From the UHGV virus genome UHGV-1550242: a stretch of 10,290 nt of DNA; one strand, given 5' to 3'. Below, piece after piece: positions 1 to 4,104 of this stretch. The notes under the pieces are model-generated. The model saw only the letters and a program-made list of their open reading frames with translations, had not been told where the DNA came from and ran no database searches. The position numbers and the translations under genes were made by a program. The stretch is from a virus. Each line of letters starts with the position of its first letter. Positions within the stretch are counted from its first letter, which is position 1.

Positions 1-161
1 CTTTTCAGATTACCTTTCAAGAAAACCTTCTCAGAACCTGAAAGAGATGAATTGTCAATTAACCTGTTCATTCTCTCAAACAACTTCTGTTTACGGTTCT
101 TGATAGTTTCCTTTGAAGCACCTTTCATCATCGCTGCATGGGTTCTTCCACGGTGGCTCAT
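1..161 (-). CDS. Hypothetical protein, 5' part only (gene continues past the left edge of the window)
   Basis: Not in the ORF track because it has no stop in the window. ATG at 161..159 on the minus strand is preceded by GGAGGG with 4-nt spacing (plus-strand 165-170 ccctcc). My manual translation gives MSHRGRTHAAMMKGASKETIKNRKQKLFERMNRLIDNSSLSGSEKVFLKGNLK... with no stop up to position 1. It lies directly downstream of the HNH gene on the same strand. I recognise no family. Confidence 0.4.
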   Translation of the reverse strand, partial: MSHRGRTHAAMMKGASKETIKNRKQKLFERMNRLIDNSSLSGSEKVFLKGNLK

Positions 162-212
162 AAGCCCTCCTATACAAGATACAGTATAAGGTACTCTTCC
201 CTGAGCACCTTG

Positions 213-725
213 TCAACTTAGTTTTGCAAACTCTCCGTGGAGTTTAATAGCAGCTTCACAGTAAGCTTTATGGGCTTCTTCTTCCGTTGTGTATGTCCCT
301 ATATGCACTGTCTTGCCATTATGGTTAATCTGTGCTTTCCACTTACCAGATTTGCTTCTACTTGTACCTTTCAAGTTTTTTGATGTTCTAGGTTGTCTCC
401 TATTAGACATATTCTGTTCTTTTGTGGCCTCTCTAAGATTGTCCCAAGCATTATTCAAACCATCTCCATCTTTGTGGTCAATGTGTTTATCAGGCCACTT
501 ACCTGTCATCCAGAACCAAGCAATTCGGTGATTGCCTGTCCTGTATCCTAAAATCTGTGTGTGCATATACACACCAGACCTTGTGCGCTTAATTGCTCCG
601 GCTTGGCTTCCAATAACCACCCTACTACTATGTGGAGGTCTGCTAATCCATGTTAAGACCCCTGTTTCGGGGTCATAATCTAACCAAGATTTTAACTGTT
701 CATGTGTGAATCCACAATCTCTCAT
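213..725 (-). CDS. HNH homing endonuclease with N-terminal NUMOD4-like motif, HNH_3-type nuclease motif and C-terminal AP2-type DNA-binding domain
   Basis: Track ORF 213..728. I prefer the ATG at 725..723 over the TTG at 728..726. Translation shows LDYDPETGVLTWI (NUMOD4-like), HRIAW...HIDHKDGDGLNNAWDNLREAT (HNH_3-type motif) and SGKWKAQINHNGKTVHIGTYTTEEEAHKAY (AP2-like). GAGGT lies 6 nt upstream of the ATG, inside the polymerase 3' end. The ATG overlaps the polymerase TGA stop by 1 nt (TGATG). Confidence 0.85.
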   Translation of the reverse strand: MRDCGFTHEQLKSWLDYDPETGVLTWISRPPHSSRVVIGSQAGAIKRTRSGVYMHTQILGYRTGNHRIAWFWMTGKWPDKHIDHKDGDGLNNAWDNLREATKEQNMSNRRQPRTSKNLKGTSRSKSGKWKAQINHNGKTVHIGTYTTEEEAHKAYCEAAIKLHGEFAKLS

Positions 726-3424
726 CAATGTACCTCATACCACGACTTACCAACCTTACCAGTACCAGTTACCAGTGTTTCACTCTTTAGCCCTAAGTTC
801 TTAGAGGCTTGTCCGTAATACCAATCAGTGACAGCCTTCACCTCTGCCGTCATACTTTCTGGGCATTCCCAACTTGTCTCGTCGTGATAGGAGCACAATA
901 AACGAGCACCAATAGCTGGTTTACGCCCATTTAACTTCATCAAGCCTTCGTCAATCATACGACGGCAAGCAAGGTTAATTGCCTCATTTTGAATCTGAGC
1001 CTCTGAACCCATGAGCAAATAATTCAACAACTTATGTGGAGATTTACACCACAACCAAGCTCCAGCAACCTTTACAAAACCCCCTTTAGAGATTGCAGCA
1101 GTCTTACCAAACACCTCTTCAAGTGCCTTTTTAGTTGCTTTGTAGTCAGCTTCCAAGTCATCTAACAGCTTCTTAATTTTAGGCAAACGGATAAAGTAAG
1201 TCTGTTTAGTCAGCGCACCTTCCTGAGTAGTTGCAGCCTTAATCGTCTTAGCAAACTTCTCATCACCTGCACCGAACAGCAGTGCATAGATACCATTCTT
1301 AGCTTTCTTACGGCCTTTGCTAATCTCATGAAGAAGATTCTCATCCTGAGTAGCTCGACAAGTCAAGATATCCTGCTCATCATTCAAGCTAAAGTAAATA
1401 CTGTTCAATGTATGTGCATCAGTCCCTGAATAGACAACGTACAGGTCATTCTCAGAGTCATAGCGAAGGTACTTATCAATCTCTGGGTTGAGGTACTCAT
1501 CAAAATGTTTGCAGTAATAGCGTCCATCTTCTTGACGAATGAACTCAATTTCTTCTTTACCTTGCGTTACCGCTTTGGTGAAGTCTTTATCACCCATAAA
1601 GTTACAAAGAAGAACTAGCTGGGCTGAGTTCATATCTACAGAGACAACGTTAGTACCTTCCTCACAAATCCATACTGCCCTCATTGGTTCCCCATAGACA
1701 GCAGCACCAGACGGTACGTTTACAATACCATATTGTGTCATACGTCCAGTTGAAGTACCAAACACCATTGCACCAGCACTAAGGCGACCATCAGGACGAA
1801 TCTGGTTCAACCAACCTTTTTCATCATCCTTTGAGTTCTCAATAGTTCTGCGTCGGTGCATCAAAGTATAGTACTTAGCAATCTTCTGTCCAAGCTCACC
1901 TTCAATCGTATCATAAGATGATTCAGTAAGTTTTGGTGAAGTACGGATTAAGCAAGGCTCAAGCAAATCTGTGTACTTCTTCACAGACCAGTTATGCTCA
2001 ATGTACTGAACACCTTCATGTTCAACATAACTTAAACCACAACGTTCTACCATCTCCTGCCACTTAGGATGTTTTGTAATCATCTTTTTATTGTCTTTGA
2101 AACGACAAACTTTGACAGGGCGACCATCTGAGTCTTTCTTGTAGTTCCAGTCATCTGGAATCCAACCAACTGATTTCAAGTAGTCTTTAACAACTGCTAC
2201 CTGAGTCATACGAGAAACTTCAAACTCAATTGGTGTATATGGTGCATCAATCAAACCTGTGTAGCGACTCGACTCAAGCTCAAAGTGGTTAACAACATGA
2301 CTGTTATAGTACTTCACAGTTTTAACTGTTTTTACTGGCTTCCAGTCTTTGCATTTCTTACCAATCTTTGCATTCAACTCATTGCAAATTGCACGAGCAT
2401 CCTTCATTGCTACAAAGCCTTCCTTGTACTCTTCACCAGTTACGGAGTTGGTTGGTGTATAGCAATTTCTCTTTTCAATATTAAAAATCTTTGTAGTTGG
2501 CTTACCAAATGGTTTGATTTCGTATGTCTGCATCTCACCGTTACGTACCTGCTGACGGTACTTTGTCTTAGGGTACTTGGTAATTCTCTTCAGTCCATCT
2601 GCATGACCAAATGTTTCAACATACTCATTCCAAGCTTTTGCAAACTCTTCTCCAGTGACTTTACCTTTGGTCTTAATAGTTGGAGGTAAATGTGGTTCAA
2701 CCTCTGAAGCAAGCTCATTAGTCAACTTGTCAAGTTCCTTTACATGGAACTCCATAAGCTCTTTATCAGCTTTCCAACCATTGATAGCTTGCTGGCTCAT
2801 CCAGAAAGATGTTTCTTTAGCTCGCATGTAAGTTTCATAAGTGTCTATACCACACTTCTTAAGCTTGAGATACTCATTATCAAGTGCCCGTTTAGTTTTG
2901 GCGTTAATACGGATATCTTCTACAACACGAGTGAAGATTTCTGCATTCCACACACCCCAATGCTCAATCTCTGGTTTACGAACACCAACACGAGCACCCC
3001 ATGCAGCCAAGCCATGAGCACCTTTATAACCCTTTGGAGTTGGTCTATCCATCCACTGAACACGAGACTGGATAAGAGAGTCCTGAAAGAAATTACTCCA
3101 CGGTTTACACTTTGGATTATCAAAGTTCCATAAATCAGGTGCAATGTGATTGAAAACCCACCAGTCATAACCGAGACCATTATGGATGCAAAGACGTTTT
3201 GCCTTTAACGCAAACTCAATACCTTCACGTAAGCCACCCTTAATGTACTTGGTATACTTGTGACCGAGGATAGGTTCATCTGTAAAGACCCATACAGGCG
3301 GCTCTTCATCGTCAGATTTATAGTCTGCGAAAGCCATTACGTGCACTTTAGTGAACTCAAGGAGTAAACCATCAGTTTCTGTATCACCAACTAAATGTAA
3401 GTTTTTAAAATCTACGTTTTCCAT
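725..3424 (-). CDS. DNA polymerase, family A (T7 gp5-like), with N-terminal 3'-5' proofreading exonuclease domain
   Basis: Track ORF 725..3454. I prefer the internal start at 3424..3422 (MENVDF...) because GAGGGAG sits 5 nt upstream, whereas the ATG at 3454 has no Shine-Dalgarno. Motifs read by eye: Exo I VGDTETDG; GAHGLAAWGARVG (compare T7 GSHALEAWGYRLG); YTPIEFEV (T7 YTPVEHVV); motif A VDMNSAQLVLLCNFM (T7 DASGLELRCLAHFM); motif B RKKAKNGIYALLFGAGDEKF (T7 NAKTFIYGFLYGAGDEK); motif C SYHDETSWEC (T7 WVHDEIQVGC); C-terminus ...GKSWYEVH (T7 ...GPNWAICH). Confidence 0.9.
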   Translation of the reverse strand: MENVDFKNLHLVGDTETDGLLLEFTKVHVMAFADYKSDDEEPPVWVFTDEPILGHKYTKYIKGGLREGIEFALKAKRLCIHNGLGYDWWVFNHIAPDLWNFDNPKCKPWSNFFQDSLIQSRVQWMDRPTPKGYKGAHGLAAWGARVGVRKPEIEHWGVWNAEIFTRVVEDIRINAKTKRALDNEYLKLKKCGIDTYETYMRAKETSFWMSQQAINGWKADKELMEFHVKELDKLTNELASEVEPHLPPTIKTKGKVTGEEFAKAWNEYVETFGHADGLKRITKYPKTKYRQQVRNGEMQTYEIKPFGKPTTKIFNIEKRNCYTPTNSVTGEEYKEGFVAMKDARAICNELNAKIGKKCKDWKPVKTVKTVKYYNSHVVNHFELESSRYTGLIDAPYTPIEFEVSRMTQVAVVKDYLKSVGWIPDDWNYKKDSDGRPVKVCRFKDNKKMITKHPKWQEMVERCGLSYVEHEGVQYIEHNWSVKKYTDLLEPCLIRTSPKLTESSYDTIEGELGQKIAKYYTLMHRRRTIENSKDDEKGWLNQIRPDGRLSAGAMVFGTSTGRMTQYGIVNVPSGAAVYGEPMRAVWICEEGTNVVSVDMNSAQLVLLCNFMGDKDFTKAVTQGKEEIEFIRQEDGRYYCKHFDEYLNPEIDKYLRYDSENDLYVVYSGTDAHTLNSIYFSLNDEQDILTCRATQDENLLHEISKGRKKAKNGIYALLFGAGDEKFAKTIKAATTQEGALTKQTYFIRLPKIKKLLDDLEADYKATKKALEEVFGKTAAISKGGFVKVAGAWLWCKSPHKLLNYLLMGSEAQIQNEAINLACRRMIDEGLMKLNGRKPAIGARLLCSYHDETSWECPESMTAEVKAVTDWYYGQASKNLGLKSETLVTGTGKVGKSWYEVH

Positions 3425-3454
3425 TTTTACTCCCTCTAAAATCATTAACCTCAT

Positions 3455-3681
3455 ACATTACTGCAAAAAATTATAAAAAGCAAGTTGACAATGCACTTGA
3501 CAAGGTGTTAATCTTTGCGAAGTGGGTTTTTACTTAAAAGGTTACTTAACAGTTTAACTATACAGATACTTTAAAACTCTTAAAAGATTATTTAATAGCT
3601 TTTAAAAAGCTTTAAAGTATAACGTATAGAATACGTTAAGATAAAAGATTAAAACTTAATAGTTACTTAAAAGAGGCTTAC
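3455..3681. promoter_or_regulatory. Divergent AT-rich intergenic control region between the leftward polymerase gene and the rightward operon
   Basis: 227 bp of non-coding, very AT-rich sequence between divergent start codons (3424 minus, 3682 plus). Contains tandem TTGACAA boxes (3485-3491 and 3497-3503), a candidate -10 TAATCT at 3509-3514 (18-nt spacing from the first box), a minus-strand TATAAT (plus 3470-3475) upstream of the polymerase start, an 8-bp inverted repeat (3620-3638) and TTACTTAAAAG direct repeats. Exact promoter assignment is uncertain. Confidence 0.5.
3620..3638. promoter_or_regulatory. Inverted repeat TAACGTAT-aga-ATACGTTA (candidate operator or RNA hairpin)
   Basis: Perfect 8-bp arms at 3620-3627 and 3631-3638 with a 3-bp spacer. 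The core contains TAGAAT (3627-3632), the same hexamer used as -10 in the two clear promoters downstream. It lies 44 bp upstream of the ATG at 3682. Confidence 0.3.
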
Positions 3682-4104
3682 ATGCAGAAAATGTTTGTTC
3701 ACCCAGACATAGCTGACTTTGTTAGAGCTTTGCAGAAGTTGGAAGAACTTGACATTGCTGCTCAACGGGAATATGCTCACCATCACAGGAGGATGGTTGA
3801 TATACAACATGAAATAGAGTTGTCTGAAAACTATGAAGATGACTTAAAATGCTCTGTATTTGAGCATATGAAAGATGTTGCTACAGCGAGACGCAAAGCT
3901 AAAGACACAGTTGCTTTACTAGATTCTCTTAAAAAGAGGTTGCAAAGTGGTACAGACCTGTGTAATCTAGCGTCACTGATTAACGATGTTGAAACTTCTT
4001 GGGATAGGCACTATTATCCACGTTCTGAAAAGACACTTGACTTTTCTTCATCCGAAAACTTAAAATGTTCTAGAAAGAAACTTAACCAACTGAGAGAGAA
4101 ATAA
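3682..4104 (+). CDS. Hypothetical protein (140 aa), first gene of the rightward operon
   Basis: Track ORF. AAGAGG at 3671-3676, 5 nt upstream of the ATG. Stop TAA at 4102-4104 lies 1 nt before the next ATG at 4106. No recognisable motif; the sequence looks mostly helical and charged. Confidence 0.6.
   Translation: MQKMFVHPDIADFVRALQKLEELDIAAQREYAHHHRRMVDIQHEIELSENYEDDLKCSVFEHMKDVATARRKAKDTVALLDSLKKRLQSGTDLCNLASLINDVETSWDRHYYPRSEKTLDFSSSENLKCSRKKLNQLREK

Follow-up and report, generated by a model that had tools for sequence, protein, structure and literature searches.

The 10,290-nucleotide (nt) stretch analyzed here (the window; UHGV virus genome UHGV-1550242) comes from the genome of a Felix O1-like myovirus (Ounavirinae, Felixounavirus), and its bases 1-3500 are 96.6% identical to Escherichia phage vB_EcoM_ASO1A (ASO1A). 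We consider it very likely that the gene at 213..725 on the minus strand, directly behind the DNA polymerase gene, is an active free-standing homing endonuclease gene (HEG) that spreads by the intronless homing pathway (PMC3984707, PMC2988022). The observations behind this conclusion are the architecture of the gene, the conservation of its catalytic residues, its presence or absence at one site among relatives, the recoding of the adjoining flank, mosaic boundaries around it, and purifying selection on its product. Cleavage, the position of the target and the mechanism of immunity we infer from sequence comparison.

The HEG consists of 170 codons followed by TGA (allele 'A'), with its ATG at 725-723 and its stop at 215-213; the open reading frame (ORF) of 213..728 carries an additional TTG at 728-726 before this ATG. 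The assignment draws on the ORF list, Pfam, PHROG, an AlphaFold2 (AF2) model, the annotation in ASO1A and other phages, and the ratio of nonsynonymous to synonymous substitution (dN/dS). Upstream, the polymerase gene ends in ...AAG TCG TGG TAT GAG GTA CAT TGA (K S W Y E V H stop), with the TGA at 727-725. The A at 725 is common to this stop and to the HEG start, giving the TGATG at 723..727 (minus strand), so that the two genes overlap by one base, or by four if the TTG is taken as the start. The same arrangement is found in ASO1A, Meda and Michonne, and in the GenBank annotation of ASO1A the two coding sequences overlap at one coordinate. The sequence, the ORF list and Pfam thereby confirm what the initial annotation had described, a free-standing HEG adjoining the polymerase 3′ end with its ATG over the polymerase stop; its word 'fused' does not hold, as the genes lie in different frames, overlap by a single base and imply no fusion protein. 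The HEG also lies outside any intron or intein, since its frame differs from that of the polymerase and it begins after the polymerase stop, and an Rfam scan of the window returned no family at threshold.

The HEG protein carries two recognizable domains. An HNH_3 nuclease domain (PF13392; E=1.3e-14, 53.9 bits against a cut-off of 24.8) spans residues 66-106 (408..530, minus strand) and is identified by Pfam, the homologue alignment, comparison with I-HmuI, and Foldseek. An AP2 DNA-binding domain (PF00847; E=2.7e-9, 37.6 bits against a cut-off of 33.3) spans residues 122-164 (234..362, minus strand) and is identified by Pfam, sequence matches in the PDB (WRI1 at 6e-9, and AtERF1), and Foldseek. 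The protein belongs to PHROG 99 'HNH endonuclease' (8.9e-64), its 90% cluster has 154 member sequences, and the wider family in metagenomes comprises 263 proteins at E<=1e-5, most of them with both domains. Across 114 homologues that are 36-95% identical to the window protein, D83 and H84 (479-474) and N96 (440-438) are invariant, and N105 (413-411) is at least 90% conserved. A weak phmmer match to I-HmuI (1U3E; E=0.12) places residues 70-117 on residues 61-107 of the chain, with an offset of 9, and pairs D83-H84 with D74-H75, N96 with N87, and N105 with N96, which we take to be the active-site residues of I-HmuI; the D-H...N...N spacing of the HEG protein matches that active site.

The AF2 model built from the 114-homologue alignment (predicted local distance difference test, pLDDT, 94.5; predicted template-modeling score, pTM, 0.84) is confident. 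Its HNH region, where a beta-beta-alpha metal fold would be expected, contains strands at 81-84 and 97-100 and then a helix at 102-107, and Foldseek matches the model to 1u3e_M (probability 0.95, E=9.6e-3) with a global root-mean-square deviation (rmsd) of 14.5 Å, the domains being arranged differently in the two proteins; so poor a global fit is to be expected where domains are loosely packed in a row. The AP2 region contains strands at 121-123, 129-135 and 138-145 and a helix at 148-166, and the C-terminal third superposes on AtERF1 (1gcc_A) with an rmsd of 1.2 Å over 52 columns and on TEM1 (7et5) with an rmsd of 1.6 Å, both with a Foldseek probability of 1.00. AP2 domains contact DNA through their beta-sheet, as in the AtERF1 complex (1GCC). 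The HEG protein is thus predicted, from alignment and model, to be a His-Me-finger nuclease with intact catalytic residues, tethered to a sequence-reading AP2 domain.

Population evidence comes from the relatives of the window. A phage database search with window bases 1-3500 matched about 264 records that hold the polymerase, and we surveyed the site with a composite 'empty-site' query in which window bases 1-212 were joined to bases 729-1128. The spans matched by this query in relatives were longer by 14 nt (empty site), by about 220 nt (an extra small ORF), or by about 490-540 nt (an endonuclease gene). With a 60-nt probe taken from C600M2, at an E-value out of reach of a match to half of it, we found the empty junction in 103 phage records, among them C600M2, wV8, the O157 typing phages, VpaE1, EC6, BPS15Q2, UAB_Phi87, and the Citrobacter phages Moogle and Mordin. 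The window allele is present in 50 records at a coverage of at least 80%. In other records this interval holds one of three further HNH-AP2 genes, the Felix O1 type in 18 records, the SP22/HY02 type in 58 and the LMP25 type in 28, counts that are approximate in that paralogous HNH genes elsewhere give partial matches. Together these alleles total 257, against the approximately 264 polymerase-holding records, so that about 40% of the sites are empty and about 60% hold one of four lineages. Protein identity is 87-89% within a lineage and only 41-56% among the four, which also differ in the residues of the AP2 beta-strands. Endonuclease-free alleles among relatives had been set beforehand as a test by the initial annotation; they exist, and they define the insertion point. 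The presence or absence of the gene at one site likewise supports its description as a selfish element aimed at the polymerase locus, the cleavage of the empty allele being the part of that description that we infer from the population pattern.

Several records depart from this general picture. In mio (L007, 1658-1867), and also in UAB_69, JH2, PK6 and others, all lacking the HEG, an extra 210-nt ORF with no Pfam match lies between the intergenic element described below and the Felix01p174 homologue. In ST11 (MF370225; L003, 4001-6198) a polymerase gene about 1 kb too short runs directly into the final 113 nt of the HEG, so that this record represents a deletion derivative whose polymerase is broken or else was misassembled. 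The 147-kb record GU169904.1, 'Staphylococcus phage SA1', contains at 95042-96140 a Felix O1-type polymerase 3′ end with its HEG at 98.8% identity and is probably chimeric or contaminated. Two 'Campylobacter' records are also among the matches.

Comparison of the empty and occupied alleles locates the insertion precisely. The coding strand of the empty allele reads ...TGG CTT GAA GTA CAC TAA TTAGTA TTGACAAGGTGCTC..., with TTGACAAGG following TTAGTA in the empty junction, while that of the window reads ...TGG TAT GAG GTA CAT TGA TG-(HEG)-...AAACTAAG TTGACAAGGTGCTC.... The HEG fills the gap between the polymerase stop and the conserved TTGACAAGG almost exactly, and its own TGA lies inside the TTGACA at 216-211. 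The last five polymerase codons (725..739, minus strand) also differ: the window has TAT GAG GTA CAT TGA in place of the CTT GAA GTA CAC TAA of the empty alleles, a change that replaces Leu by Tyr and turns GAAG into GAGG. These codons form the left edge of the cassette and probably one half of the disrupted target, as judged from Michonne and Mordin and from a comparison of 16 loci. Michonne (occupied) and Mordin (empty) both belong to Mooglevirus mordin, and their 600 nt upstream of the site are 96-100% identical except for the final 100 nt, where 89 of 100 positions agree. Seven differences fall in the last 15 polymerase nucleotides (TAC GAG GTA CAT TGA versus TTA GAA GTC CAC TAA); downstream, about 300 nt including the first small ORF are replaced, and identity then returns to 100%. 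Among the 16 loci, the phages with allele A and HY02 have TAT/TAC GAG GTA CAT TGA, and CTT/TTA GAA GTA/GTC CAC TAA/TGA is the form in four of the five empty ones, the fifth, mio, being intermediate. By these alignments the cassette carries the final five codons of the polymerase in a form of its own. The initial annotation had placed the insertion after the polymerase gene and not within it. This is right insofar as the HEG is outside the polymerase ORF and all alleles keep the terminal ...VH*, and it needs amending insofar as the cassette brings these five codons with it.

The mosaic structure extends beyond the junction itself. In phiWec172 and 35FD the HEG is 94-100% identical to that of the window, while the polymerase falls to 80-85% at 726-800 and to 66% at 801-1000; in phiWec172 the two sequences become alike again about 34 nt upstream of the polymerase stop. 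Between ASO1A and the window it is the downstream small ORF that falls, to 86%. Because HEG identity is high beside a diverged polymerase 3′ end and a diverged downstream ORF, these comparisons indicate that the HEG sits at boundaries of genetic exchange, as phage HEGs generally do (PMC10448857). In EC6 (L006), HY02 (L011) and PHB11, the small ORF at window positions 1-157 is replaced by unrelated sequence, and homology begins at about position 158, which marks a further mosaic boundary immediately beside the HEG.

The target of the enzyme is probably the empty junction at the polymerase stop and intergenic region, ...CTT GAA GTA CAC TAA TTAGTA TTGACAAGG..., because this is the sole place of consistent difference between HEG-bearing and HEG-less phages (window versus C600M2; Michonne versus Mordin) and it is split by the insert. 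Homing would then proceed as follows. The HEG would be transcribed with the DNA polymerase gene and translated either from the GAGG within the final codons of the polymerase or through re-initiation at the overlap. During mixed infection with a HEG-less relative, the enzyme would nick or cut the rival genome, most likely at or near the junction, and repair off the HEG-bearing genome would copy in the gene together with short flanking tracts, which is intronless homing. The phage's own copy would be protected in that the insertion splits the junction and the last five polymerase codons are recoded.

Some of the evidence weighs against this interpretation. The empty allele of mio already has TAT GAG GTA (followed by CAC TAA), and therefore those substitutions are not strictly linked to the HEG. 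Only two kinds of comparison bear on the position of the target. The pattern of presence and absence could partly reflect ordinary recombination and deletion instead of endonuclease-driven conversion, and our literature searches found no cleavage, nicking or co-infection data for any Felixounavirus HNH-AP2 gene. Finally, strong purifying selection and flank-like base composition, described next, would be just as much in keeping with a gene long resident in the phage and beneficial to it.

All seven copies of allele A that we extracted are intact ORFs of 170 codons. For six relatives compared with the window copy, dN/dS is 0.05-0.08, including Michonne at a synonymous divergence (dS) of 1.16, and the HEG protein is therefore under strong purifying selection. 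Because of these intact copies and ratios, together with the PHROG 99 match and the 154-member cluster, the HEG ORF is not a chance ORF. Its G+C content, 0.41-0.43, equals that of the flanks and rules out a foreign base composition. Such strong constraint in uniformly intact copies is unusual for a decaying selfish gene, and with the fully ameliorated composition and a stop codon lying within a strongly conserved downstream element it would suit a domesticated protein: a nuclease or DNA-binding protein no longer mobile and kept because it excludes or degrades competitor or host DNA, or because its AP2 domain regulates the downstream intergenic region. Domestication of HEGs is documented elsewhere (PMC10448857; AP2-containing CasPR regulators, bioRxiv 10.64898/2026.02.23.707548). 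We nevertheless judge this explanation unlikely. About 40% of close relatives have no gene at all at the site and even phages of the same species differ, and the HEG is therefore dispensable; moreover, four divergent lineages take turns at a single site and the mosaic boundaries are sharp, which is how continuing mobility shows itself. None of the catalytic residues has been lost, whereas pure regulators such as the CasPRs lack an HNH domain. An AP2 repressor of the CasPR kind was rejected on the same ground, CasPRs combining CapR with AP2. Benefit to the phage and mobility are not mutually exclusive.

The downstream side of the HEG carries a second feature of the locus, a 69-nt block at 213..281 (minus strand) that comprises the last 22 HEG codons and the stop and is defined by nucleotide and protein alignments. 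This block is 100% identical to the corresponding part of the Felix O1, SP22 and LMP25-type genes (query 1-69/70), while the rest of these genes cannot be aligned at the DNA level; Michonne is 88% identical over the block, and HY02 has a few differences. At ...GAAGAAGCCCATAAAGC... unalignable sequence gives way abruptly to identical sequence. With a single occurrence in each genome, the block belongs to the locus, not to the gene family. Its simplest reading is a downstream homology arm in the replacement of one HEG allele by another, which gene conversion would keep uniform; an alternative is a cis-acting role in downstream expression.

Beyond the HEG lies a conserved intergenic region (162..216, minus strand; defined by alignments) that forms the right edge of the insertion and directly follows the polymerase stop in empty alleles. 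Its identity among the Felixounavirus phages with allele A that were measured is 96-98%, and its sequence reads TTGACA AGG TGCTCA GGGAAGAGTACCT TATACT ... TAGGAGG, where the TTGACA at 216-211 holds the HEG stop, and TATACT and TAGGAGG precede the next ORF. We rejected the TTGACA as part of a sigma-70 promoter: no -10 element lies at 16-18 nt, and TATACT is 22 nt away. The spacing of TGCTCA, 13 nt and TATACT resembles what we take to be the geometry of a T4 middle (MotA-type) promoter, a resemblance only.

A more tentative proposal, which we regard as doubtful, is that the post-polymerase site of the Ounavirinae is a contested homing locus, in which four HNH-AP2 lineages displace the empty allele and each other. 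The 69-nt block and the intergenic region would together serve as the fixed downstream recombination arm and the polymerase 3′ end as the upstream arm, and the identity of the block would be due to repeated gene conversion, not to selection at the protein level. If this is true, one would expect every lineage to cut the junctions that its rivals have made, and the locus would be a natural system for studying competition between homing endonucleases.

We also examined how the HEG is likely to be expressed. A GAGG Shine-Dalgarno sequence (733..736, minus strand) lies inside the Glu-Val codons of the polymerase, 7 nt upstream of the ATG, and a ribosome_binding_site is annotated at the equivalent place in Michonne and Meda; the empty alleles have GAAG at 736-733. 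No hairpin that would sequester this site was found: the 111 nt around the start are less stable than shuffled controls (z=+1.7), and T4-style translational control by a hairpin was accordingly rejected. Promoter- and terminator-like sites in window 1-3700 are at or below the shuffle expectation, and none lies between polymerase and HEG. Co-transcription of the HEG with the polymerase gene is well supported as a prediction, because there is no intergenic space and promoter-like sites on the strand do not exceed chance. The initial annotation had read the TGATG overlap as making HEG expression dependent on polymerase translation. Translational coupling through the overlap is indeed possible; dependence is not implied, because the GAGG 7 nt upstream of the ATG lies in an unstructured region and coupling would not be required. 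In the other lineages the HEG starts elsewhere, 3 nt after the polymerase stop in HY02, 10 nt after it in SP22 and LMP25, and 19 nt before the end of the polymerase gene in Felix O1.

It is instructive to compare the HEG with known systems. 'HNH homing endonuclease' is the label at this position in dozens of GenBank records, and the genes so annotated in Felixounavirus and Mooglevirus (ASO1A_093, BPS17L1, Meda_038, Michonne gp037) are copies of the window gene, alike in their site and in the TGATG, at amino acid identities of 95-98% in Felixounavirus and 87% in Michonne. The window shows no material difference from these and represents another isolate. Felix01p176 (ORF95) of Salmonella phage Felix O1 shares the locus, the HNH-AP2 architecture and the identical last 69 nt, but it is only 41% identical in amino acid sequence and, in place of a TGATG overlap, has its start 19 nt inside the polymerase gene. 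It represents a different lineage, probably with a different DNA specificity, because the AP2 beta-strand residues differ. It is among the six HNH HEG copies that the Felix O1 genome is reported to have, which were shown not to be inteins (PMC3185647).

HNH-AP2 proteins form a recognized family of homing endonucleases (Magnani et al. 2004, cited by PMC3022922 and PMC10448857). Members of this family and the IPA-HNH proteins of Vibrio phage ICP1 (PMC10448857) are, like the window HEG, free-standing, with an N-terminal HNH and a C-terminal AP2 domain; they often lie beside DNA polymerase genes and are located where genetic exchange has its boundaries; IPA-HNH genes were near such genes in 29% of the neighborhoods surveyed (PMC10448857). 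In contrast to the IPA-HNH domains, which are too divergent for Pfam HNH_3 (PMC10448857), the window protein matches HNH_3 strongly. The nicking enzyme I-HmuI, from the DNA polymerase intron of Bacillus phage SPO1, has in common with the window HEG an HNH_3-type core, a phage DNA polymerase as host gene and, as far as the AF2 model indicates, an elongated multi-domain fold. It differs in being intron-encoded and in ending in a helix-turn-helix, where the window HEG is free-standing and has AP2, and the sequence similarity, as given above, is marginal. The mobE and seg HEGs of T4 (PMC2790892, PMC2988022, PMC3984707) resemble the window HEG in their intergenic position beside essential genes, their presence or absence, the co-conversion of flanks, and immunity through sequence differences. 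The T4 Mob proteins, however, combine HNH with zinc-finger-type DNA-binding regions and not with AP2, and homing has been shown experimentally in T4, whereas here it is predicted.

The gene upstream of the HEG is the family-A DNA polymerase gene (725..3454, minus strand), the longest ORF, uninterrupted and identified from the ORF list, Pfam (DNA_pol_A, E=2.5e-15) and GenBank relatives. The relatives place its start at the equivalent of 3445, and the longest ORF begins 9 nt further upstream (3445-3454; 909 versus 906 amino acids). Within it, at motif B (..KNGIYA|LLFGAG..; 1283..1284, minus strand), alignment reveals an empty group I intron site, a second and separate site for mobile elements, which in relatives is marked by Rfam and Endonuclease_7 matches. 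Many relatives carry a group I intron here (RF00028 at 62.4 bits in Meda; L012, 2829-3061), either as a 268-nt form without an ORF or as a form of about 805 nt with an Endonuclease_7 gene (Pfam 6e-20; GEC_vB_B1, L015, 2989-3474). Window positions 1001-1700 are about 76% identical to the intron-bearing phages, versus about 96% elsewhere, a divergence that looks like intron-linked co-conversion of the exons.

With some relatives carrying the 268-nt intron in the gene directly upstream of the HEG, the HNH-AP2 enzyme might cut the intron-less polymerase at motif B, 555 nt upstream, and so mobilize the ORF-less intron in trans. Such collaborative homing has the same geometry as known cases, for example F-CphI, which acts for psbA in cyanophage S-PM2 (PMC3984707, PMC6083498); F-CphI is of the catalytic type Endonuclease_7, as is the ORF of the long intron in the relatives. 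We nevertheless consider collaborative homing very improbable. The window and ASO1A, which have the HEG and no intron, are identical from -29 to +38 at the insertion site to C600M2, which has neither, and an enzyme aimed there would therefore cut its own genome; for the window allele this candidate was rejected on that account. This comparison is an indirect test. In addition, all combinations of intron state and HEG state occur, and the longer intron comes with an Endonuclease_7 gene of its own.

Downstream of the HEG and outside the element, the neighboring feature is the 5′ part of the next small ORF (1..161, minus strand; ATG 161-159), a homologue of Felix01p174 according to the annotations of ASO1A and Felix O1 and without a Pfam match. 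The HEG is part of the replication module, flanked by the polymerase gene on one side and the small early ORFs on the other. This setting bears on a last alternative, that a small HNH protein in a tailed phage serves packaging by assisting the terminase, in the manner of HK97 gp74. We give it next to no credence, as the gene is not beside the terminase, is missing in 103 relatives, and encodes a sequence-specific AP2 DNA-binding domain; that natural relatives without the HEG package normally also speaks against it.

Taken by itself the HEG is of minor importance, a textbook case of the free-standing type that already bears the correct label in GenBank, and the system is already known in kind. 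What is mildly new is only the turnover of four lineages at a single site with a common 3′ block. The comparison also supplies a candidate target of about 40 bp at the junction of polymerase stop and intergenic region for an uncharacterized HNH-AP2 enzyme, and it presents a case in which insertion of a HEG recoded the last codons of an essential gene, with Leu replaced by Tyr. For the Felix O1-like phages as a group, about 60% of roughly 260 phages of this therapeutic type carry one of four interchangeable endonucleases, which bears on recombination and marker exclusion in phage cocktails.

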